Shown here: piece by piece, positions 1-53,214 of the stretch | Position numbering within the stretch: position 1 is the stretch's first letter | Layout of the letters: the number at the start of each line of letters is the position of its first letter | IMG/VR virus record: IMGVR_UViG_3300029305_012082 | Location: 32,001 to 96,000 of that record | Source: a virus | Taxonomy: Duplodnaviria; Caudoviricetes | Length of the DNA: 64,000 bases | Strand: one strand, 5' to 3' | Position numbers and translations under genes: made by a program | The notes under the pieces: generated by a model | Database searches by the model: none | What the model was told of the DNA's origin: nothing | What the model saw: the letters and a program-made list of their open reading frames with translations, nothing else

Positions 1-2438
1 CCAAGATCAAGATCGAATTCAATCCGCTGTGGTCTTTGAGCGATGTAGAACAAGCTGATCTCGACAACAAACGGGCAAACACCGAGTTGGTGAAGGCACA
101 AACCGCACAAGCATACATCGACATGCAGGTCTACGATCCAAGCGAGATCAGAAAGAAGCTTGCCCAAGCAAATGACTTCGAAATCGATGATGTAATTAGC
201 GAAGAGGATCTGGAAGAAGATTTCTTTGCTTCTTTGGAAGAAACGGCTGAACCTACAACTAGGTTGGCTGCAAACCCCGACGCTGTCCACGAGACAAAGA
301 CAGCGGCTGAAGGTAGTACGCCTACGAATGCGCCGGCAGCAACGAAGCTTCCTCAGGATATGACGGCGCAGGAAATCGGAGAGGTAGCAAAGAACACCGA
401 TGAAGATGATGCAGTGTGGAATCCTTTTGGCGTTGGCGTTCTTGTAATAAAGGATGGAAAAATTCTTACTGGAACGAGGCACAATGACTCCGGATATGGA
501 CTCATCGGAGGCCCCGGTGGTCATGGAGAAGAAGGTGAAAGCCCTGAAGAGGCAGCTTTTCGTGAAACCGAGGAAGAATTCGGTATCAGCGCAAAAGAAC
601 TGATCCCCATTGGATTAGGCCCTTTTGAACCCGAAAGTGGGCTGCAATCTCATCTTTTCATCTGCACAGAATATGACGGTGAACCCGACTGTGTTGATAT
701 GGAGATGGTCAATCCCAAATTCCGCACCTTGGAAGAATTGGAACAGCTGGATGCGTCCCTGTTCCCACCGTTCAAGGACAGCTTAGAGATCCTGAAAAGG
801 GAACTCTGTGGAAAACGGGATGACGGTGGCCCCGGCTCCGGTAACTGGGGACATGCTGGTAGACCCGGTAAAAAGGGTGGCTCTTCAGGAGGTGGCGGTG
901 CACATAACCGCATGGGATCTTCTGAGGAAGGATATACTTCCTTCTCCAAGGAAAAAAAGAAGATGGCAAAGCCGCACAAGCTCTCTCACGAAGAACTTTC
1001 CAAGTGTCCCAATGGTACTGTCATCGCTGGCATGGCTGGTCACTACAAAAAAGCCAAGATTGAAGTTTGGAACAACGAGACGTTCGACTATGAATTTAAG
1101 GAAGGCTTCGTCAGCGATGACTGGGGAGATTTCCTTGAAATCGATCAGGTAATTTCTGCTGCCGGTAACGATTCCTATGGTCTCGCAATTCCCGACAGCG
1201 CCAACAAGAACTACCTCAAACCGAAGGGAGATCCTTTCTCTGACGAACGGAGAACCAACGCATTCAAGGCATCTGAAGCTCGTGATGCTGATGACCTGCT
1301 CAGAGAGAAAAGTGGACATATTTGGCGAGGACTGGATGATGCATCCAAAGATGCCCTCGTTGGATACACGGGCGAAACATACTTTGATATAAACAGCGGC
1401 TTACGAAATGGCTATAATGTATCAGACAGCATCCGGAAAGACACGGAACTCTTGACAAATGCAATTTCTCAATCTGTTCTGGATAGAGACATGTATCTGT
1501 TCCGTGGCACTAGCAGCAGCGCGGCAGAGAAACTTTTCGGCTTAAAATCTGGCGATCTCGCTACTTGGAGCGGTCAGATCGAAGATCTGAGCACATTGGT
1601 CGGAACACGAGGTATCGACAACGGCTTTTTGTCCTGCGGAACGTCTGAAGGCAAAGGATTCACCAGCCGAGATGTCCAGTTGAAGATATACTGTCCTGCC
1701 GGAACACAGGCACTTTACGCCGAACCCTTCTCTGCATTCGGACGTGGCGATCAGCGAAGCTGGGATGGTATCAGCAAGCAGAATTCCTTCTCTTCTGAAA
1801 ACGAAACAATCCTTCAAAGAGGATGTGAGCTGCGTATTGTTGGTGCGGAATGGTCTGGAAACAAGGCTATTCTGGAAGTTGAAGTGCTATCCCAGATGAA
1901 TAATACCATCAAATCAGATGGAGATGACCTAGATGGCTTCTCAAAATCATCGAATCCTGATAATCTCGAAAAACATCTTGACTTTTACGGTCAATCAGCT
2001 ACGATAAAGTCACAAGATAACTTCGATGGCGGCTCCGGCTCCGGAAACCATGGACACAGAGGTGTTAAGGGTCAACGGGGAGGATCTGCAGCAAAGTCCT
2101 CCCATCCCAAAGTCACAAAGTTCACAACCCAGAATGGGAGAATGAAGATTACTTCAGATCTTAAAGTCAAAGCGAGTAAATCTGGGAAAGTATCTGTTAC
2201 GATAAAAGCGGGACAGGAAATCGAAGGGATTTATTCTTTTGCTGGGAAGGGGTCGAATGCAAATCTTGTGGTATCCGGCACACTGTCCAAACAATATGGA
2301 GGCAAACCGAAAGACTGGTCCCACTTGTGTGGTTATGCAACCGTTGTCAATTCAAACGGAAGCCAAGAACGGGCGGAGATCCACTGGTTTGAGCATGAAA
2401 CGGTAGGCCAGATAAATTTCAAAGTTAAAAAAAGGTAG
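1..2438 (+). CDS. 5'-truncated portal-like protein (DUF1073-type C-terminus) fused to Nudix, VIP2/C3-like ADP-ribosyltransferase and a C-terminal putative toxin domain
   Basis: Frame is open from base 3 (KIKIEFNPLWSLSDVEQA...YDPSEIR, portal-like end), so the start lies outside the window. Nudix box GGHGEEGESPEEAAFRETEEEFG; ART motifs YTG..INSGLR, LFRG, FLSC, ENE; lies upstream of head genes. Confidence 0.8.
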   Translation, partial: KIKIEFNPLWSLSDVEQADLDNKRANTELVKAQTAQAYIDMQVYDPSEIRKKLAQANDFEIDDVISEEDLEEDFFASLEETAEPTTRLAANPDAVHETKTAAEGSTPTNAPAATKLPQDMTAQEIGEVAKNTDEDDAVWNPFGVGVLVIKDGKILTGTRHNDSGYGLIGGPGGHGEEGESPEEAAFRETEEEFGISAKELIPIGLGPFEPESGLQSHLFICTEYDGEPDCVDMEMVNPKFRTLEELEQLDASLFPPFKDSLEILKRELCGKRDDGGPGSGNWGHAGRPGKKGGSSGGGGAHNRMGSSEEGYTSFSKEKKKMAKPHKLSHEELSKCPNGTVIAGMAGHYKKAKIEVWNNETFDYEFKEGFVSDDWGDFLEIDQVISAAGNDSYGLAIPDSANKNYLKPKGDPFSDERRTNAFKASEARDADDLLREKSGHIWRGLDDASKDALVGYTGETYFDINSGLRNGYNVSDSIRKDTELLTNAISQSVLDRDMYLFRGTSSSAAEKLFGLKSGDLATWSGQIEDLSTLVGTRGIDNGFLSCGTSEGKGFTSRDVQLKIYCPAGTQALYAEPFSAFGRGDQRSWDGISKQNSFSSENETILQRGCELRIVGAEWSGNKAILEVEVLSQMNNTIKSDGDDLDGFSKSSNPDNLEKHLDFYGQSATIKSQDNFDGGSGSGNHGHRGVKGQRGGSAAKSSHPKVTKFTTQNGRMKITSDLKVKASKSGKVSVTIKAGQEIEGIYSFAGKGSNANLVVSGTLSKQYGGKPKDWSHLCGYATVVNSNGSQERAEIHWFEHETVGQINFKVKKR
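1978..2005 (+). promoter_or_regulatory. copy of the phage promoter motif inside the portal fusion ORF
   Basis: TTGACT-16nt-TACGAT followed by AAAGTCACA, as at 51209. Confidence 0.6.
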
Positions 2439-2447
2439 GGGATTTCG

Positions 2448-2606
2448 ATGACAGGAATTTGGAGAGGCGATACTGATCCTCTGGAGCTTATCCATGGGAA
2501 AGAGTACGAAATTATCGGAGAAGGTTTCGACGGTACATTTTTCGAAGTGGTTGACGAAACGGGGGAGGCATTCTTGTATCCTGCGGAAGATTTCGAAATC
2601 GTTTAA
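2448..2606 (+). CDS. 52-aa acidic protein, putative immunity/antitoxin partner
   Basis: Manual translation MTGIWRGDTDPLELIHGKEYEII...VVDETGEAFLYPAEDFEIV; starts 9 nt after the fusion ORF; absent from ORF track. Confidence 0.7.
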   Translation: MTGIWRGDTDPLELIHGKEYEIIGEGFDGTFFEVVDETGEAFLYPAEDFEIV

Positions 2607-2648
2607 TAGCGGTTCTTGAAATAATTTCTAGGCATATAGAAAAACCAC

Positions 2649-2676
2649 TTGACTAGGTCGGTAGGTAAGTTACGAT
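2649..2676 (+). promoter_or_regulatory. phage promoter motif
   Basis: TTGACT-AGGTCGGTAGGTAAGT-TACGAT. Confidence 0.75.
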
Positions 2677-2714
2677 AAAGTCAAGATGATACTACCGAGC
2701 AAGGAGGGGTTAAA

Positions 2715-2945
2715 ATGGCAAGATGGGACAATGAAGAGTTTGCGCTCCAGCGCCCTGATGAAAACCGGATTATCTGCAAGGATTGTGTGTTTAGAGAAAA
2801 AGATCGTCAGTTTGGCAAGAGTGTTATCTGCGGATGCACACTTGACATCTGTCAAGTTTATTCGAACAGCAATCCGAAGCCGCACGATATTCTTTTCAAG
2901 AACAAACCCTGTGGGTATTATGTGAGCGAGAATGATGAAGACTAA
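2715..2945 (+). CDS. small Cys-rich, possibly metal-binding protein
   Basis: AAGGAGG RBS; CKDC...C...C pattern. Confidence 0.7.
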   Translation: MARWDNEEFALQRPDENRIICKDCVFREKDRQFGKSVICGCTLDICQVYSNSNPKPHDILFKNKPCGYYVSENDED

Positions 2946-2975
2946 GATCAGAAGCAGAGTAAAGGAAAAGGAACT

Positions 2976-3767
2976 ATGATTGGTGCAATTGTAGGAGATA
3001 TTGTAGGCTCCATTTATGAATTCGATAATCACAGAGGCAAGGAGTTTCCTTTGTTCGGAAAAGGATGCTTCGCAACAGATGACAGCATTATGACTTTGGC
3101 GATTGCCAAGGCGGTTATGCTCAGTAAGCCGGATCACAGTGATCTTGGCAGAAATGCCGTCAAGCACATGCGAGAAGTTGGTCAGCCGTACCCATCTTGC
3201 GGGTATGGAGGCCGGTTTTTTCAGTGGATGTACAGCGACAATCCAGCCCCGTACAACAGCTTCGGAAACGGGGCCGCCATGAGAGTTAGTCCTGTTGCAT
3301 ACGAAGCGAAGTCGTTGGAAGATGTGAAGCTGATGTCTCGGCTTGTGACTGAGGTAACTCACAATCATCCCGAAGGGATTAAAGGCGCAGAGGCTGTAGC
3401 GGTGGCCACATGGCTTGCGCTTCATGATTTCGATAAAAGCGAAATCGATCATTATATCCGGGAGAACTACTATCCGATGGATTTCACGATTGATGAGATC
3501 CGTCCGACATATCGGTTCAATGAAACCTGTCAGGATACTGTCCCCCAAGCGATCAAGGCATTTTTGGAGTCCGAAAACTTCGAGGATGCGATCCGGATTG
3601 CGATTTCTGTTGGCGGTGACAGCGACACTTTAGCGTCTATTACTGGAGCAATAGCCGGTGCGTACTACGGTGTGCCCTCGGCAATCAAAATTCAAGCAAA
3701 TCGGTATCTCGATGATCGGCTTTCTGTGATTTTAAGGGATTTTTGTTTGCGTTACGGCGCAGCATGA
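2976..3767 (+). CDS. ADP-ribosylglycohydrolase (ARH/DraG/Tri1 family)
   Basis: GAIVGDIVGS, TDD, GNGAAMRVSP, THNHPEG and GGDSDT motifs. Confidence 0.95.
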   Translation: MIGAIVGDIVGSIYEFDNHRGKEFPLFGKGCFATDDSIMTLAIAKAVMLSKPDHSDLGRNAVKHMREVGQPYPSCGYGGRFFQWMYSDNPAPYNSFGNGAAMRVSPVAYEAKSLEDVKLMSRLVTEVTHNHPEGIKGAEAVAVATWLALHDFDKSEIDHYIRENYYPMDFTIDEIRPTYRFNETCQDTVPQAIKAFLESENFEDAIRIAISVGGDSDTLASITGAIAGAYYGVPSAIKIQANRYLDDRLSVILRDFCLRYGAA

Positions 3768-3825: not shown

Positions 3826-3900
3826 GTCGTGGTAGATCAGAAGGTAGATCACCGGGAAGGCATAGCCCGACAGTCGCAGGTTCAAGTCCTGCCCACGGCA
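3826..3900 (+). tRNA. degenerate tRNA-like element (Met-like; CAT in a 9-nt loop; no CCA)
   Basis: Acceptor GTCGTGG/CCACGGC, D stem GATC/GATC, T arm GCAGG-TTCAAGT-CCTGC; anticodon loop AAGGCATAG is non-canonical. Confidence 0.55.
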
Positions 3901-4003
3901 CAACTCCCGGAAGCGGGGCTATTTTCTACTCCTTTGTAACTTGACGGCTCGGAAAAGACGAGAAGTGCTGTGTAGCGTGGTTGAGCTACACAGTGCGCCT
4001 TAT

Positions 4004-4088
4004 GGGGCAGTGGCGAAATGAAAACGCTGGGGACGATTTCCTCTAGTGCTGTTGCACCTTGTTGGTTCAAATCCAACCTGCCCCACCA
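4004..4088 (+). tRNA. degenerate class II tRNA-like element, anticodon undetermined
   Basis: Acceptor GGGGCAG/CTGCCCC plus ACCA, T arm GTTGG-TTCAAAT-CCAAC, variable stem GTGC/GCAC; irregular anticodon arm. Confidence 0.6.
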
Positions 4089-4188
4089 CCCACGAAAGTG
4101 GGATCTTCCTCTCTTTTTCTTGTTTTGACAGCTCGGAATAGACGGCAATGCCCTGTAGAATTCATTCGCCTCTGCAGGGCAAACATAC

Positions 4189-4264
4189 GCTGCTATAGCT
4201 CAGTCGGTAGAGCAGCTGATTTGTAATCAGCAGGTCGTCGGTTCGAGTCCGACTAGCAGCTCCA
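4189..4264 (+). tRNA. tRNA-Thr(TGT)
   Basis: Full cloverleaf; GCTGA-TTTGTAA-TCAGC; CCA. Confidence 0.95.
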
Positions 4265-4367
4265 CTGTGGTGTGGTGAACCACAGAGGCTTTCATTTCTC
4301 ATTCTTCTGGCAGCTCGGAAAGACGAGCAGTGCTGGACGATCCTCCTATTCGCCCAGCACATCATAT

Positions 4368-4441
4368 GCCGCAGTAGTTCAATGGCAGAACACCAGCCTT
4401 CCAAGCTGGTTGCGCGGGTTCGATTCCCGTTTGCGGCTCCA
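4368..4441 (+). tRNA. tRNA-Gly(TCC)
   Basis: CCAGC-CTTCCAA-GCTGG; CCA. Confidence 0.95.
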
Positions 4442-4666
4442 AATCCGAGGTGTACATGGGCCGTTGCCGACATAAGGCAGCGCAAGCCGGTTGCCGCGCT
4501 ACACGATAGGAGAAAACAGCTGGGTCGCTCCCATCCGACAGCCGGACGGAATACAGACCGATAGTACTGTGACACGACGGACAGCGACGCCGAACAGGCC
4601 AGAACGAGAGGCCGGCAGACACGCCGCCAGCTGACTTAGAGAGCAGAAAAGATGCGTGTCCGATAT

Positions 4667-4741
4667 AGGGGTGTCGCCAAGAGGAAAGGCACGGGACTTT
4701 GACTCCCGTATTCGCAGGTTCGATCCCTGCCATCCCTGCCA
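4667..4741 (+). tRNA. tRNA-Gln(TTG)
   Basis: CGGGA-CTTTGAC-TCCCG; CCA. Confidence 0.93.
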
Positions 4742-4854
4742 AGGACATATATGTCCTTACCAAGAGCCGAAAACAACCTGCTTGCGCGACAACGACTGCG
4801 TACCACGCGGGAACAGTGTAAGCGGGTTCTTTCGGTAATTGCCAACATTGAAAT

Positions 4855-4942
4855 GGGAGCTTCGCCAAGCGGTGAAGGCATCGGTCTTGAAAACCGACAG
4901 GGCAGTAATGTCGCATGGGTTCGAATCCCTTAGCTCCCGCCA
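4855..4942 (+). tRNA. tRNA-Ser(TGA)
   Basis: TCGGT-CTTGAAA-ACCGA; long variable arm; G discriminator plus CCA. Confidence 0.92.
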
Positions 4943-4967
4943 AAACCAACAGTGATGAAGATTTGAC

Positions 4968-5050
4968 CTCCGCATGAAGGAATGGTAGACTAACTTGTCT
5001 CAAAAACAAGTGCCATCGGCGTCCCGGTTCGAGTCCGGGTGCGGAGACCA
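4968..5050 (+). tRNA. tRNA-Leu(CAA)
   Basis: CTTGT-CTCAAAA-ACAAG; variable arm; CCA; weak D stem. Confidence 0.85.
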
Positions 5051-5209
5051 GCCGGTATGCTTCATCTAGACATAGTGTTGGGCGACTGTGACCCGGACTC
5101 TCGGAGTCCTCCTTCCAAAGAAAATCGCAGTCTGATCTTAAAGTGAGGCCGCTTACCCTTGTGGTGGAAAAGTAGCGGGAAAGAACAGAGGCGGGGCTGT
5201 TCATTTCGT

Positions 5210-5286
5210 GGGCCTTTAGCTCAGCGGGTCAGAGCCTCCGGCTCATAACCGGATCGTCCACGGTTCGAATCCGTGAAGGCCCACCA
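5210..5286 (+). tRNA. tRNA with CAT anticodon, probably Ile2 (lysidine type)
   Basis: TCCGG-CTCATAA-CCGGA; GGGCCTT/AAGGCCC acceptor resembles Ile2 rather than fMet. Confidence 0.85.
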
Positions 5287-5481
5287 TAAATGCAAGCGAT
5301 GGATAGATCCGCCAAACACTAGGATCACCAGAGGTCGAGACTCTGGGCTTGCTCATGGCCGCGAGGCTTCTTCCTTTTGTTGTGCATAACGGAGGAAGAT
5401 AAAGAATACCATCTGGACCCGGATTGAGTGAAACGGATGCGACTTTTGCACGAGCGCAGGGCTGAAAAGTTCCGTGGCAAA

Positions 5482-5599
5482 AACAGGAATGCAAATAGTG
5501 GTAAGGATGAGGTGAGGTGCCCGTATAGGAGAGGCAACGCCGACCAACCATTAGGTGTCGAGGCGTTGGGTAGTTCTGAAGGCTATTTGCATTCTTGTT
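5482..5599 (+). ncRNA. putative structured ncRNA
   Basis: 18-bp closing stem AACAGGAATGCAAATAGT/GCTATTTGCATTCTTGTT; inner stem CAACGCC/GGCGTTG. Confidence 0.45.
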
Positions 5600-5695
5600 A
5601 TTGCTGTGAAAAATCCATTCGCATAGTGGCAAATAATGCCGCTATGCTTTTTTGTTGTCCTACAAACGCCCCAAGCAGCAGGGAGGAGATAATCC

Positions 5696-6634
5696 TTGAA
5701 CCATAACCAACACCAACAAGCTGTAAAAAAGGCGGTAAAAGCGAAATTCAGGGGTCACACGACCCTGCACAGCAAGCGAACCCCACTATATCCAGACACG
5801 GCAGAGCGGGAATATATGAGGATCACAGCTGGTTACGTCAGGTTGATGAATCAGGTGTTGAGAGAGAACCTGCCTGAAATAATGACCGAGTACAGAGCGC
5901 AACGAACAGATGGTGTCAGAAACGACGATCTTCGTGACTTGGAATCTTGGCTGAGACAAAAGTTCCGACAAATGGCGCAAGAACTTGAAAAACGGGTTTC
6001 TGTATTCGGGCTAGAGAGACTTGTGGACAAAGTATCCAGAATGACACAACGGATGTCCCTGAGGGAATGGAAAAAGTCGGTTAAAGACACCTTGGGAATT
6101 GATCTCATGGATGACTACTATAGCGGAGAATTCTACGAGTCGATAGTTCACAGGTGGGTGGATGAAAACGTTCTAAAAATCAAAACGCTCCCTCAGAACA
6201 CACTGGATGAGATGCAGCAAATTATACTGCATGGCTTTAAGTCTGGCTCGACGATCAGAGACATCACGAAAGAGATCCAACGTGAATATGGAGTAACCAG
6301 AAGACGGGCAAGAACTCTTGCCAGAGATCAAATTGCAACACTGAATTCGCAGATAACAAAAGCCCAGCAACAAGATGCCGGATGCAACAGATACAGATGG
6401 TCCGATTCCCGTGATTCTCGTGTCCGAGAATGCCACCACGCTTTGAACGGCAAGATCTTCAGCTGGGACGATCCTCCGGAGATGTGGTACACGACCAAGA
6501 AACGAGGAGTTGTTCGCACCGGAAGACGTTGTCATCCCGGCGAAGATTACTGCTGCAGATGCATTGCTATTCCAGTATTCGATTATGAGACACTTGATGT
6601 CCCTATAAAAGAAACAGTAAGTCCCAAGGGGTAA
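5696..6634 (+). CDS. head morphogenesis protein (MuF/SPP1 gp7 family)
   Basis: RARTLARDQ, W...DSRVRECH and HPGEDYCCRC motifs. Confidence 0.92.
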   Translation: MNHNQHQQAVKKAVKAKFRGHTTLHSKRTPLYPDTAEREYMRITAGYVRLMNQVLRENLPEIMTEYRAQRTDGVRNDDLRDLESWLRQKFRQMAQELEKRVSVFGLERLVDKVSRMTQRMSLREWKKSVKDTLGIDLMDDYYSGEFYESIVHRWVDENVLKIKTLPQNTLDEMQQIILHGFKSGSTIRDITKEIQREYGVTRRRARTLARDQIATLNSQITKAQQQDAGCNRYRWSDSRDSRVRECHHALNGKIFSWDDPPEMWYTTKKRGVVRTGRRCHPGEDYCCRCIAIPVFDYETLDVPIKETVSPKG

Positions 6635-29144: not shown

Positions 29145-30554
29145 ATGAGCAAAGACGTATTGATCGGCGAACAGACGTATTCAGGAATAACAGACGTGCA
29201 GCTTAAAACCACAACTGGTCAAGCCGCCACGTTCAAAGATGTTGACGAGATCGTCACACCGAGCGGTGAAAAGGAAATCACAGCAAACGGCACATACGAT
29301 ATCACGGGATATGCCAGCGTGGTCGTAAATATTCCGACGGAGGGTGAAGCAATGACGATTAACACAGAAGCAAGCACAACATTTGAACTTGCAAATGGCA
29401 CCGAATTCAGACGGGGAGAGGTAGCGGAACTTGTTCTTACAATCCCCGAGGAACTCCCCACAGCTTTTAGCTGTCAAGTTGCATTTACAAGTGGTGAAAA
29501 CGCAACTAGCATTACAATGCCCACAGATGTCGTAATGCAAGGCGAATCTGTGTCCAATGGAGTTTTCACACCCAAGGCCCATTATCGATATGGTCTCATG
29601 TTCTGGTACGACGGCGAAATCGTGTGGTGTGTCATTTGTGCCGCAGCTCTGGAAGGAGCAGAAGACAATCCTGACGAAGGCGGCAGCGGAGATAATACCG
29701 GAGATGACACCGGCGATACTGGAAATACCGGAGGTTCTGGATCTGGCGGCGAAGATGATAACACCGAGATGACTGGTAGCGGAACGGAGTCTGATCCGTA
29801 CATGATTGCAACTGCAGCACAGTTCGTTGCACTTGGAGAAGAAGTTGATGCCGGCGATACGAAGAGTGGAGTTTATTACGCCGTTGCAAACGACCTCGAT
29901 TTGGATGGCATCGAATGGAACCCCATTGGCGCAAACTATAAGAATACCAACAGTGACACCGACAATAGCGGTAGCTTTGCCGGTACGATTGATGGTCGTG
30001 GTCACGTCATCCGCAATATCAGCATAAACGGCATGCAGTATGCAGGTCTGTTTGGCTCGAACTTTGCCGGTACAGTAATGAACCTTGGACTTGAAGGTGG
30101 CTCCATCAGCACGACTTATGCAAGTTCCACTTGCGGTGCCATTGCACGCAAGGGTTCCGGCAAGATCGTAAATTGCTACGCACGAGTTCCCGGTCAAGCT
30201 GTTACTCGTTCGTCCGGTATCATTGATGAGATCGAAGCTGGCGGCATGGTCCTTGGCTGTTACCAAGCTGCAGCTATCAACAACGGAAATGGCTATGCGA
30301 TCAAGTCTGCTACTACAACAACCGGAACAATTAAGTATTGCCTGTGGGATAGCACATTGACAGAAAAGGGTATTGCCGGGACTTCTTCTTCTGATTCCAA
30401 CAATAACGGTATTACAACCGCAGAGTTTGCAACAGCTCATACAACCCTCAATAATAATCTTTCCGCTGTTGCTGCTGCGGCCGGAATCGATGTTGCCAAG
30501 CTGTGTGCTTGGGAGGCTGGTTCTGACGGTTATCCCAGACTGGTGGTGGCGTGA
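29145..30554 (+). CDS. tail-associated protein with GLUG/M26-like beta-helix region
   Basis: GSGTESDPYMI, WNPIG, FAGTIDGRGHVI and GLFG motifs. Confidence 0.7.
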   Translation: MSKDVLIGEQTYSGITDVQLKTTTGQAATFKDVDEIVTPSGEKEITANGTYDITGYASVVVNIPTEGEAMTINTEASTTFELANGTEFRRGEVAELVLTIPEELPTAFSCQVAFTSGENATSITMPTDVVMQGESVSNGVFTPKAHYRYGLMFWYDGEIVWCVICAAALEGAEDNPDEGGSGDNTGDDTGDTGNTGGSGSGGEDDNTEMTGSGTESDPYMIATAAQFVALGEEVDAGDTKSGVYYAVANDLDLDGIEWNPIGANYKNTNSDTDNSGSFAGTIDGRGHVIRNISINGMQYAGLFGSNFAGTVMNLGLEGGSISTTYASSTCGAIARKGSGKIVNCYARVPGQAVTRSSGIIDEIEAGGMVLGCYQAAAINNGNGYAIKSATTTTGTIKYCLWDSTLTEKGIAGTSSSDSNNNGITTAEFATAHTTLNNNLSAVAAAAGIDVAKLCAWEAGSDGYPRLVVA

Positions 30555-31486
30555 TGAGTCTTACGATGAGACGATTTGCTGCAATTGCTCAACTATCGTC
30601 AGGTAGTGCAGTTGCGCCTGTTCTTCGGTACAAGCTCGGAATTATATCGGACTCTCACTCTGGATACACAAATGCAGTTCCGCATTTAACGGCAACCTTG
30701 AATACGCTTCATAATCGTGGGGCGCAAGAAATCGTCACTTGCGGAGATAGTGCTGTAAATGGTACTCAGGCAGAATGGGAGCAGTATATCAGCACAATCG
30801 AATCGTCCCCGTACAAGAGAACTCAAGTTCATGAGTGCAATGGCAACCACGATGGTGCCGCCCCCGATCTGACCACGTTTAAGCAGTATTCAAACAATGG
30901 AGCTTTGGTGGGAAAAGATCCGTACTTTGCGATCGACCTGTTTGGAGATCGTTTCATTTTCTTGGCTTTCGATGTTGGAACGTCTCCCAGCGGTGGAAAC
31001 TGCTTCTCAACAGCACAGCTTGATTGGCTTGAAGAAGAGCTTCAGGAGCACTACGGCAAAGGGAAGAATGTGTGGATCATTGAACACTCTCTTTTCTATG
31101 GTTGGGGTGCTGGTGATATTATTTCCGCCCCTAGATACCCAAGAGCCTTGTCCCTTTCCTTTGATAGCCATATCCGCCTGAAATCCATTTTGGAAGCACA
31201 TCCCAAGCTTATCTTCCTCCACGGACATACGCATATTAGGCTTGAAGATGTTTCCGAAGGACTCGTTGCCCATGCACTTCCTGCGGATGCCGGATGCAAT
31301 CAGATTCACGTCCCTGCTGTTACCGCAGGTAAGTTTATTGGAGGCAGCGGCGAACCCTCGGCGGATTTTAGTATGGACCCGGAATGCTGGTACTGCGAAG
31401 TTTACACAAACAAGATTGTTTTCATCGGTCTTAACGGCAATACTGGTGAAGAAATAGCAAACGTTTCTCATACTATTGCAGTCTAA
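30551..31486 (+). CDS. calcineurin-like metallophosphoesterase
   Basis: SDSH, CGD, GNHD, H and HGHTH motifs. Confidence 0.88.
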   Translation: MMSLTMRRFAAIAQLSSGSAVAPVLRYKLGIISDSHSGYTNAVPHLTATLNTLHNRGAQEIVTCGDSAVNGTQAEWEQYISTIESSPYKRTQVHECNGNHDGAAPDLTTFKQYSNNGALVGKDPYFAIDLFGDRFIFLAFDVGTSPSGGNCFSTAQLDWLEEELQEHYGKGKNVWIIEHSLFYGWGAGDIISAPRYPRALSLSFDSHIRLKSILEAHPKLIFLHGHTHIRLEDVSEGLVAHALPADAGCNQIHVPAVTAGKFIGGSGEPSADFSMDPECWYCEVYTNKIVFIGLNGNTGEEIANVSHTIAV

Positions 31487-41918: not shown

Positions 41919-41977
41919 TTGACTTTACTGATTGGTATGCTACGATATAGTCACAAAAAAGTTTACCGATTGGTAAA
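41919..41977 (+). promoter_or_regulatory. phage promoter plus downstream operator
   Basis: TTGACT-16-TACGAT; TTTACCGATTGGTAAA at 41962. Confidence 0.8.
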
Positions 41978-51596: not shown

Positions 51597-52379
51597 ATGA
51601 ATGTGAACTGCGGCAACTGTAGCCACCAAATTGTCGGCACTCTTTCTGGTTTAAGAAACGAAGAAGGCTGGCATATCGCATGCCCTGAGTGTGGAACTTC
51701 TGTCACCATGGAGGAACTGCCCCGCCGGATCATCATGGTTTTTGATTTCGATGAAACTGGCGAACACTTCACCGATGACCTTCTCGCAGACACTCGTTCT
51801 CGGGATTTTGAAGCGTTTGAAACCCCCAAGGAGTTTCTGGATTCTTGGAAGGTTCTTGTCCAAAAACCCGATGGGATGTGGTACTGGATTATTGACAATG
51901 GCGAGATCTTCTGTTCCGGACCTGTCGACGTCAACGACATTTACTGCATCGTCGATCATTTTGATGGAGAGCAGCTATTTCAAGGCCGGCCTTCCAAGAT
52001 TCAGGAATTCAATATTACCGTTTCGCAGAAAGTTGTACTCACTGTTGAGGACATTGATGACATTATGGTCGGAGCACTTGAAGGTGGAATCAATTACTGG
52101 TGCAAGGAAGCTGAAGTGATCGAAGAGAAACGGGTTGCGGCATGGGGACACGAGCAGATCGCCAGAGGTGGAGTCTTGATGCTCCACGATAGATATGAAG
52201 ATGAAGTGTACGAGCTTACCAGAACCAAGTTCATTGCTGGCTTCCAAAAATGGTTCGAAAACGGCGGATACGAAAGTGGCGCAGTGAGCGGCGGAAAGGT
52301 TGACTGCTGTTTGATTGATGCGATCGAGGCTGACATGATTGTGCAGTATGCTTTGTTTGGCAAGCTCGTCTATTGTTGA
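51597..52379 (+). CDS. multidomain hypothetical protein with N-terminal Zn ribbon
   Basis: CGNC...CPEC; ALEGGINYW...IDA..AD.IVQYALFG. Confidence 0.7.
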   Translation: MNVNCGNCSHQIVGTLSGLRNEEGWHIACPECGTSVTMEELPRRIIMVFDFDETGEHFTDDLLADTRSRDFEAFETPKEFLDSWKVLVQKPDGMWYWIIDNGEIFCSGPVDVNDIYCIVDHFDGEQLFQGRPSKIQEFNITVSQKVVLTVEDIDDIMVGALEGGINYWCKEAEVIEEKRVAAWGHEQIARGGVLMLHDRYEDEVYELTRTKFIAGFQKWFENGGYESGAVSGGKVDCCLIDAIEADMIVQYALFGKLVYC

Positions 52380-52392
52380 GGGGTTGAGTGCG

Positions 52393-53214
52393 ATGGGAAG
52401 AAAAAGATATGATGACTTATTGGGTATGAAGTTCTCCAACCTTCTGGTCATCAAACAAGCAGAAAGCAGCCGAACCGGCTGCGCTAGGTGGATATGCAGA
52501 TGCGAGCTTTGCGGAAGCGAAACGGCCATTTTTGCATCAAACCTAAAAAACGGAAGAACCAAGATGTGCAAATCTTGTTCAGAGAAAAGAAAGACGACAC
52601 ACGGGTTATCCCGCGACCGAATTTATCCTGTATGGCAAGCCATCCTCCGCAGATGCGAAAACCCGAAAAATGAACACTACCACGACTACGGAGGCAGAGG
52701 AATAGCTGTTTGCGAGGAATGGCACGATCTCAGAACATTTGCTAAATGGGCATATAGCAATGGCTTCGCCCCCTCCGCAAAGAGGGGCGAATGTACGATT
52801 GAGCGCAGAGATGTAAATGGCAATTACTGCCCCGAAAACTGTTTCTGGGCTAACATGAAGACGCAGGGCAGAAACAAGAGAAACAACCGACTGCTTCAGA
52901 CGAGCGAAGGTGACAAAACAATCACAGAACTCTCCGAAAACGCAGGTATTCTCGCAACTACTGTTTCTGGGAGAATAAAACGTGGCTGGAGCATCGAGGC
53001 AGCGCTGAATATACCAGTAGATAAACGCAGAGGAGGACACCGAAAGCCTGTCCTGTGCGTAAATGACGGAAAACTGTATGGATCACTCATAGATGCGGCA
53101 ACAGCGTATGAGCTGAGCTATGACAAAGTGAGGAGAGCCGTCGACACTGACAAGGATGTAGATGGCTATATATTCGCAACGAACTATGAGGAGGGATGCC
53201 AAAATGGATTATGA
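52393..53214 (+). CDS. free-standing HNH-like homing endonuclease with NUMOD1-like tail
   Basis: W.CRC..CG, YGGRGIAVCEEW, TIERRDVNGNYCPENC.W and KPVLC...Y.S..DAA motifs. Confidence 0.8.
   Translation: MGRKRYDDLLGMKFSNLLVIKQAESSRTGCARWICRCELCGSETAIFASNLKNGRTKMCKSCSEKRKTTHGLSRDRIYPVWQAILRRCENPKNEHYHDYGGRGIAVCEEWHDLRTFAKWAYSNGFAPSAKRGECTIERRDVNGNYCPENCFWANMKTQGRNKRNNRLLQTSEGDKTITELSENAGILATTVSGRIKRGWSIEAALNIPVDKRRGGHRKPVLCVNDGKLYGSLIDAATAYELSYDKVRRAVDTDKDVDGYIFATNYEEGCQNGL

Follow-up and report, generated by a model that had tools for sequence, protein, structure and literature searches.

The stretch of DNA considered here (64,000 nt, referred to below as the window) corresponds to positions 32,001-96,000 of the 104,687-bp provirus record IMGVR_UViG_3300029305_012082. 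It opens within the gene of a phage portal protein, the C-terminal end of which is prolonged by a Nudix hydrolase domain, an ADP-ribosyltransferase (ART) domain and a further C-terminal domain (CTD). Three genes follow, encoding an acidic 52-aa protein, a Cys-rich 76-aa protein and an ADP-ribosylglycohydrolase (ARH). The composition of these modules and their distribution among related prophages point to a portal-borne toxin protein, the antidotes of which would be encoded by the genes downstream. Positions given without further indication are those of the window, whereas residue numbers refer to the complete portal protein. The cargo modules and the three genes following them all lie on the plus strand.

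Organization of the portal gene and of the genes following it

The start codon of the portal gene was located 1198 nt upstream of the window (record position 30803). After addition of 1.5 kb of upstream sequence, the complete open reading frame (ORF; P0006, L001:303-3938) comprised 1211 aa, the final 811 of which are encoded by nt 3-2438 of the window. The portal core extends from residue 1 to ~470 and its C-terminal end occupies positions 1-212. Pfam Phage_portal_3 (PF06381) was matched at residues 71-426, over profile positions 6-353 of 357 (E 4.4e-72), and the score of 243 bits lies far above the curated cut-off of this family (33.8 bits). Portals from the PDB were matched at residues 57-442 (9jlf, E 7e-30; 9l01, E 2e-28). 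The location of the gene was also that expected for a portal within a head module. The gene for the terminase large subunit (TerL) lies directly upstream, while the 52-aa ORF, the 76-aa ORF, ARH, a tRNA array, MuF, a DUF2213 protease/scaffold, a cement protein and the major capsid protein follow at the 3' side, and the order of the head-module genes was the same in the related loci L004 to L007.

The segment between portal core and Nudix domain was variable around one conserved peptide, APAATKLPQDM[ST]xEE (330-374), of which A510, P511, K515 and P517 were invariant in 44 homologs. The motif was found in 20 out of 61 loci and its synonymous sites varied freely, so that the constraint must act at the peptide level. 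It is a possible cleavage or docking site. The Nudix domain itself (408-818; residues 536-672) was recognized by Pfam NUDIX at residues 542-646 (positions ~426-740; E 3.9e-12). Its Nudix box (residues 573-595, positions 519-587) is intact with respect to the consensus GX5EX7REUXEEXGU (G-HGEEG-E-SPEEAAF-RE-T-E-EE-F-G-I) and was invariant in 44 diverse homologs. NCBIfam models yielded weak generic matches to MutT, YtkD and RppH, all below cut-off. A tblastn search with the Nudix domain against 50,697 phage records, in which a relation to T4 NudE was looked for, returned Faecalibacterium phage FP_Brigit as sole match.

Next comes a cassette composed of three parts. It is opened by a Gly-rich header (RDDGGPGSGNWGHAGRPGKKGGS; 816-893), which is disordered in the structural model, and continues with a small alpha/beta domain of ~95 residues, here called the mid domain (945-1232; residues 715-810), and the ART domain (1245-1895; residues 815-1031). 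The mid domain was modelled with a pLDDT of ~70-85, and a structural search with it retrieved nothing above Z 4. Mid domain and ART moved as one unit, being found together in P0008, P0097, P0117, P0021-26, L004 and L007. Pfam ADPrib_exo_Tox (PF03496) was matched at residues 842-1017 (positions ~1326-1853; E 9.4e-17), and the PHROG match was annotated 'Bxa ADP-ribosyl transferase' (E 1.5e-22). The catalytic residues are R901 (1503-1505, within LFRG), S944 (1632-1634, within FLSCGTS) and E999-N-E1001 (1797-1805). R901, S944 and E999/E1001 were conserved in 12 homologs, and the arginine and serine aligned to those of C3stau2 and Plx2A. The cassette model (pLDDT 71) retrieved C3bot with Foldseek (E 2e-14, probability 1.0) and, with VIA, Certhrax (Z 21.4, rmsd 2.7, 194 aligned residues), C3stau2 (Z 21.2) and the ART of a solved Listeria ART-ARH pair (Z 20.9). 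By its motifs and its model, the domain thus displays an R-S-E triad and a C3-like fold, and NAD-dependent ADP-ribosylation of a protein target is predicted. In ARTs of the C3 type, arginine is the acceptor that accompanies an ARTT loop with ExE.

A second Gly-rich header (NFDGGSGSGNHGHRGVKGQRGGS; 2019-2093), equally disordered in the model, opens the last cassette. The CTD that it introduces (2109-2438; residues 1103-1211) is basic and beta-rich, displays the conserved motif AEIHWFE...GQ..K.KK and is considered here a candidate toxin. These last 109 residues of the protein were folded confidently (pLDDT >90). Foldseek retrieved nothing from the PDB at E<=0.001, Pfam, PHROG and NCBIfam searches remained without match, and only unnamed clusters were found in the ESM Atlas. 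The context of the domain, C-terminal on a portal or MuF protein, is similar to that of PBECR; no Pfam match appeared at E<=1, and neither Foldseek nor a wide VIA search (best Z 4.2) retrieved a BECR structure. A HMMER profile of the CTD detected 996 representative clusters, in proteins of 75-1814 aa, and the domain was nearly always situated at the extreme C-terminus. Among sampled carriers were portals, MuF proteins, an LPD3 polyvalent protein and ART/Nudix proteins; short solo proteins were encountered as well.

The acidic 52-aa protein (2448-2606) belongs to PHROG 34144, of unknown function, and is a candidate immunity protein for the CTD. The charges of the two were complementary, with an isoelectric point of 9.9 and a net charge of +10 for the CTD as against 4.05 and -12 for the small protein. 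Homologs were found directly behind the MuF-CTD gene of an SPP1-like phage (E 1.5e-20) and behind an LPD3-CTD gene (E 1e-21). The portal ORF ends with TAG and the 52-aa ORF begins three codons further in the same frame (2436-2450). This is probably a coincidence, as among the two homologs checked the small ORF was in frame in L006 and not in L005.

The Cys-rich 76-aa protein (2715-2945) contains six cysteines (CxxC...CxC) and could be a non-enzymatic partner of the ART or an immunity protein against it. PHROG, Pfam and NCBIfam searches gave no family match, and a word-based homolog search returned the protein itself and one close relative only. It is followed by the ARH (2976-3767; 263 aa), the candidate enzymatic immunity protein for the ART. 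Pfam ADP_ribosyl_GH (PF03747) was matched with E 3.2e-37 and 129 bits, against a cut-off of 26.2. The segments TDDS (33-36) and GGDSDT (213-218) aligned to their equivalents in ARH3, and matches in the PDB included ARH3 and Lmo0067 (8za7_A, E 5.5e-15), the hydrolase of the Listeria ART-ARH pair. Scores against the NCBIfam models for Tri1 (NF041672) and DraG (TIGR02662) were 57-58 bits, the cut-offs being 490 and 337, respectively; by these scores the protein is a member of the ARH family and not a Tri1 or DraG equivalog.

A sequence-only reading of the window had predicted much of this organization, and in this respect it was borne out. The frame which it considered portal-like indeed belongs to a complete portal, and the cargo is fused to the C-terminal end of that portal. 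The intact Nudix box and the R-S-E type ART were confirmed by Pfam domains within the ranges it had proposed and by motifs that were invariant or nearly so among homologs. The further toxin-like domain suspected behind the ART corresponds to the well-folded CTD, and the 52-aa gene, the Cys-rich gene and the ARH-family hydrolase were all found where it had placed them.

Occurrence of the portal fusion and variability of the tails

Homologs of the portal protein were searched among proteins of 666-2120 aa. At least 5379 protein clusters were detected at E<=1e-10, and the best 120 all combined portal and Nudix. The nearest isolate was FP_Brigit, whose gp30 (828 aa, annotated 'portal protein') consists of portal, Nudix and a different tail. 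The unrelated C-terminal domain of gp30 (L003:7923-10409) is introduced by a different junction motif (NEADHPRDENGQF). A scan of species-representative genomes uncovered 63 prophage loci, distributed over Oscillospiraceae, Lachnospiraceae, Acutalibacteraceae, Christensenellaceae and others, cultured strains included. Clostridiales bacterium CCNA10, Gemmiger formicilis DFI.6.10 and Parablautia intestinalis are examples of cultured carriers. Nudix was fused to the portal in 54 of the 59 usable loci, and portal lengths ranged from 409 to 1480 aa. An artefact of assembly, which the earlier reading had considered as a possible refutation, could be ruled out, since thousands of clusters display the fusion and since complete genomes and isolates contain it too.

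The tails were diverse. The 120 portal-Nudix proteins displayed 48 tail architectures, and variable tails, which that reading had proposed to look for, were thus present. Recognizable sibling tails comprised ART (PF03496), ART-PolyVal, Ntox50, Gln_amidase/Tox-PL1, phosphoribosyltransferase, DUF4258 and DUF7211, while the majority remained without Pfam match. The two cassettes of P0006 were found separately in other portals and move as units. Residues 676-1031 (header, mid domain and ART) formed the terminal part of P0008, P0026 and others, and residues 1056-1211 (header and CTD) constituted the commonest tail directly after Nudix. A conserved N-terminal carrier onto which C-terminal toxin domains are swapped as cassettes is the arrangement that characterizes polymorphic toxins.

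Co-variation of cargo modules with the downstream genes

Portals with different tails were followed by different genes. Loci L005 and L006, the portals of which carry the CTD only, continue with a 54-55-aa homolog of the 52-aa protein (63-71 % identity) and lack ARH. Loci L004 and L007, the portals of which end with the ART, continue with a Cys-rich homolog of 74-80 aa (43-48 %) and an ARH (60-75 %) and lack the 52-aa homolog; in both, the Cys-rich gene is placed between the ART-bearing portal and ARH. The P0006 locus combines both cassettes with both sets of partners, and the partners are arranged in the reverse order of the cassettes.

This association was also found in the 59 loci as a whole. 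A 52-aa gene directly followed the portal in all seven loci with a CTD and in none of the 52 others (7/0/0/52; Fisher 3e-9). For an ART in the portal, the counts were 3/0/1/55 both with ARH and with the Cys-rich gene. ARH and the Cys-rich gene were limited to four loci with an ART (three of them with ART on the portal) and were absent from the 55 loci without ART, so that ARH tracks ART. L021 (10462-13184) is the exception; ARH and the Cys-rich gene lie there upstream of a separate 518-aa ART protein, and the portal carries Nudix and another tail; the set of ART and antidotes therefore moves between carriers.

Since ARH and the Cys-rich gene occur only with ART, and the 52-aa gene only with the CTD, the pattern is that of cognate immunity genes, and a downstream gene co-varying with the toxin domain is a second characteristic of polymorphic toxins. 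The sequence-only reading had interpreted the same genes as a circuit in which the ART writes, ARH erases and Nudix scavenges. This part of it found no support in that form. On account of its co-occurrence with ART and of its match to the Bxa/Bsi/BAH system described below, ARH most likely serves as an enzyme of immunity instead of being deployed with the ART as an eraser. Nudix is constant with or without ART (54/59) and consequently does not appear to be a dedicated scavenger for it.

Promoter-like element and Gly-rich header

A promoter-like element, TTGACT-N16-TACGATAAAGTCA, was present in five copies in the window, against 0.02 expected. One copy (1978-2012, plus strand) falls within the portal ORF, directly ahead of the second header and the last cargo module, and another (2649-2683, plus strand) lies upstream of the Cys-rich gene and ARH. 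L005 and L006 contain the in-ORF copy at the corresponding place. When six distinct CTD-bearing portals were aligned as DNA, it was the sole nucleotide-invariant block, third codon positions included, and it was kept where the Gly-rich header was swapped for another linker. In L007 and L004, the Cys-rich homologs have related elements in front of them. Together, these features suggest that transcription of the antidote genes does not depend on the late operon. The three remaining copies (TTGACT-N16-TACGATA(A/T)AGTCA, at 41919, 51209 and 57382) are located ahead of small ORFs of unknown function, and a gene for an HNH endonuclease (52339-53214) follows one of them.

The Gly-rich header is a segment of ~22 residues with consensus [K/D]GGPGSGN[F/W]GHxGRPGxxGGS. 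It opens each cassette of P0006 and was encountered at cassette borders in homologs too. A degenerate-DNA scan of IMG/VR for this header yielded at least 109 ORFs on more than 100 contigs (loci L072-L151), in which flanking residues not forced by the search pattern were ~100 % conserved. The matches listed included ORFs with up to five copies, and their carriers comprised a second, unrelated portal family (PF04860), MuF, a DUF2213 protease/scaffold and an ART-PolyVal protein; in a 215-aa solo ART, also among these matches, the header lies near the N-terminus. No published description of the motif was found in the literature searched. The idea that the header or the KLPQD peptide would serve as cleavage sites shared with other head proteins found no support within this phage, in which both are confined to the portal protein.

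A wider generalization can be formulated tentatively, although it is rather doubtful. The header might be an undescribed universal 'cargo grammar' of tailed-phage heads, that is, a processing or loading signal marking exchangeable effector modules on any head carrier, with in-ORF promoters travelling with the modules for independent expression of antidotes. The portal-Nudix family from phages of gut Clostridia would then constitute a major unrecognized chassis for the delivery of polymorphic toxins, with twelve copies per virion.

Neighbouring genes

The MuF head protein (5696-6634, plus strand; 312 aa) contains Pfam Phage_Mu_F at residues 173-291 and has no C-terminal extension, as already noted in the sequence-only reading. 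A tRNA array of eight genes (Cys, Pro, Thr, Gly, Gln, Ser, Leu, Met; 3826-5286) is inserted in the head module between ARH and MuF; transcripts from the promoter-like element at 2649 possibly extend into it. Minus-strand ORFs at 4362-5632 were regarded as spurious; this stretch is that of the tRNA array, and family searches with the ORFs were without match.

The TerL gene displayed a single in-frame TAG at record positions 29391-29393 (L002:9391-9393), just before the Walker A motif, while its homolog in L005 had no stop at the equivalent place. An error of sequencing could account for it, as could readthrough or a nonsense mutation acquired by a prophage in decay. Recoding of TAG is unlikely, as the other head-module genes examined were intact and of normal length under code 11. 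Upstream of the terminase (L002:3660-6987), ParB-like, methyltransferase and glucosyltransferase-like genes were found; PIG-L and WbqC genes occupied the equivalent place in the homologous loci L004 to L007. The genes 5' of the terminase possibly form a DNA-modification module.

A gene for a large serine recombinase (record 1228-1674, minus strand; 572-aa open frame) is situated at the left end of the record, which indicates a temperate lifestyle. No tyrosine integrase was found.

Relation to known systems

A characterized parallel is Bxa, a MuF-ART protein from a prophage of Bacteroides stercoris, for which the ARH-family protein BAH and the small binding protein Bsi were experimentally shown to be immunity proteins (Alexei et al. 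2024, PMC11699363). Both systems consist of a prophage head-module protein with a C-terminal arginine-type ART, behind which come small ORFs for non-enzymatic proteins and a hydrolase of the ARH family. They differ in the carrier, which is a portal here and MuF in Bxa, and in the host, which belongs to the Clostridia and not to Bacteroides. In addition, the polypeptide of the present system includes a Nudix domain and another toxin-like module, for which a separate partner gene is present.

Several effector domains within one polypeptide encoded among head genes are also typical of the polyvalent proteins of Iyer et al. (2017, 2022), who listed Nudix, ART, 2H, PBECR and InPase fused to portal or MuF and predicted head packaging and injection (PMC5512222, PMC9503650). 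Portal fusions were treated in passing there, and these passing mentions were all that was found in the literature on portal-borne polymorphic toxins. Cognate immunity genes, the Gly-rich header and in-ORF promoters were not found described in a search of either paper, and the words 'glycine' and 'linker' do not occur in the 2017 text. Unlike polyvalent proteins, P0006 displayed no detectable zincin-like processing peptidase (MPTase).

MuF polymorphic toxins of temperate phages are well established (PMC5576092), and their association with lysogeny was proposed by Jamet et al. They share with the present family a conserved N-terminus derived from a head protein, variable C-terminal toxins (ART, Ntox50, Tox-PL1), enrichment in temperate phages of gut Firmicutes and immunity genes downstream (Jamet et al. 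2017, PMC5576092; Zhang et al. 2012, PMC3482391). In the present case, the carrier is the portal (12 copies per virion), while one to two copies of MuF were reported in SPP1; moreover, an invariant Nudix separates carrier from toxins, and up to several cassettes are stacked.

R-S-E ARTs neutralized by an ARH-family hydrolase are also known from the pair Tre1-Tri1 of the type VI secretion system and from Lmo0066-Lmo0067 of Listeria (PDB 6drh, 8za7). Structural similarity of the present ART to those of the two pairs amounted to Z 13.9 and 20.9, respectively; their delivery, however, relies on bacterial secretion systems and not on a phage head.

Finally, T4 Alt is an ART which is packaged in the virion, leaves it together with the DNA and then modifies proteins of the host, and the present ART would resemble it in packaging and ejection. 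Alt is, however, a separate protein, loaded by means of a capsid-targeting sequence and subject to processing by the prohead protease, and it is not known to have an immunity gene. The present ART belongs to the portal polypeptide itself and is accompanied by ARH.

The locus therefore belongs to an already described class, that of polyvalent proteins and MuF toxins, and is not a new kind of system. Not found described were the stacked portal toxin modules with antidotes in mirror order, the pair formed by the CTD and the 52-aa protein, the in-ORF promoter and the Gly-rich header shared between carriers.

Proposed function

We favor, with a probability of roughly 0.7, the explanation that the protein is a portal-borne polyvalent or polymorphic-toxin protein of a temperate phage of gut Clostridia and that the downstream genes encode its antidotes. 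The C-terminal crown of portals faces the capsid interior. Three cargo units, a constant Nudix, an exchangeable ART cassette and an exchangeable CTD cassette, would accordingly be carried on the interior-facing end of the portal. Since every portal subunit carries the cargo in its own polypeptide chain, up to twelve copies would enter each head and no targeting system would be needed. The acidic 52-aa protein would neutralize the CTD, while the Cys-rich protein, through binding, and ARH, through removal of ADP-ribose, would neutralize the ART, as Bsi and BAH do for Bxa, the antidote genes standing in mirror order to the toxin modules. From the Sigma-70-like promoters in the portal ORF and before the Cys-rich gene, the antidotes would be made apart from late transcription, and such independent expression would protect both the lysogen and the virion-producing cell. 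The cargo would have to be cut from the portal to reach the cytoplasm of the next host upon ejection with the DNA, and the conserved linkers are obvious candidate cut sites.

Several points weigh against this explanation. No peptidase domain was found in the portal-cargo protein, and cargo left uncleaved would remain attached to the portal once the capsid has emptied. Owing to the in-frame TAG in TerL, this provirus copy may be unable to form virions. The CTD has no recognizable catalytic fold, so that its designation as candidate toxin derives from context. By sequence comparison, the Cys-rich protein has no detectable relation to known immunity families, and ARH scored far below the Tri1 and DraG cut-offs, so that these matches do not predict its bond specificity. 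Lastly, few ART loci stand behind the counts, two of them were hand-picked, and related phages are not independent samples.

In one alternative, the cargo would not be injected at all. The full-length protein or fragments of it could be set free when the lysogen lyses and act on competing bacteria or on the animal host, as proposed for Bxa, the fusion then coupling its production to induction. No mechanism of cleavage or ejection is evident in the locus, immunity genes would be needed in either case, and for Bxa an action on epithelial cells following release has been reported (PMC11699363). ARTs, however, depend on NAD+ and on targets in the cytosol, while searches of the tail revealed no domain for secretion or cell entry. 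Several head proteins (two portal families, MuF and a DUF2213 protease/scaffold) furthermore carry these cargo domains and the Gly-rich header, which suggests that the head is the relevant compartment. We consider release at lysis unlikely.

It is likewise improbable that the three enzymes cooperate as effectors in host takeover or counter-defence, with the ART writing ADP-ribose on host targets, ARH erasing these marks or those of host defences such as the DarT type, and Nudix clearing ADP-ribose or NAD-derived signals. All three families do work on NAD/ADP-ribose chemistry, head-packaged Nudix and ART were predicted to act early in infection (PMC9503650), and ARH, with a promoter-like element of its own, could be expressed early. 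Yet ARH was fused to no head protein and was present only where ART was, which fits an antidote better than an anti-defence eraser. Nudix resided in its 54 portals regardless of ART, the characterized Bxa-BAH arrangement is one of toxin and immunity, and the solved Listeria ART-ARH pair was titled effector-immunity.

That the tails are internal head proteins with structural or enzymatic housekeeping roles in packaging or early infection, and the small genes their chaperones or loading factors, would suit the CTD and mid domain, which lack a match to toxin-like folds, and the Nudix-only portals, which lack an obvious partner gene, but it is very improbable given the bona fide toxin domains of sibling tails (Ntox50, Tox-PL1), the intact ART triad paired with an ADP-ribose-removing enzyme, and the strict one-to-one pairing with small acidic proteins and charge complementarity typical of toxin-immunity pairs.

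Significance

To our knowledge, most of what is known of head-packaged effectors and MuF toxins comes from sequence analysis, and those studied at the bench (Bxa, Apk2 and EFV) are all carried by MuF. Under the favored explanation, that of a portal-borne toxin with its antidotes, the same toxin-immunity logic would be placed on the portal itself. The CTD and the 52-aa protein would define a new and widespread pair of toxin-like domain and antidote, the domain being represented by ~1000 clusters. A cultivable relative exists in FP_Brigit with its gp30, and cleavage and ejection of portal cargo are thereby open to virion proteomics. As these phages infect abundant Clostridia of the human gut, the system may shape competition between lysogens in this environment.

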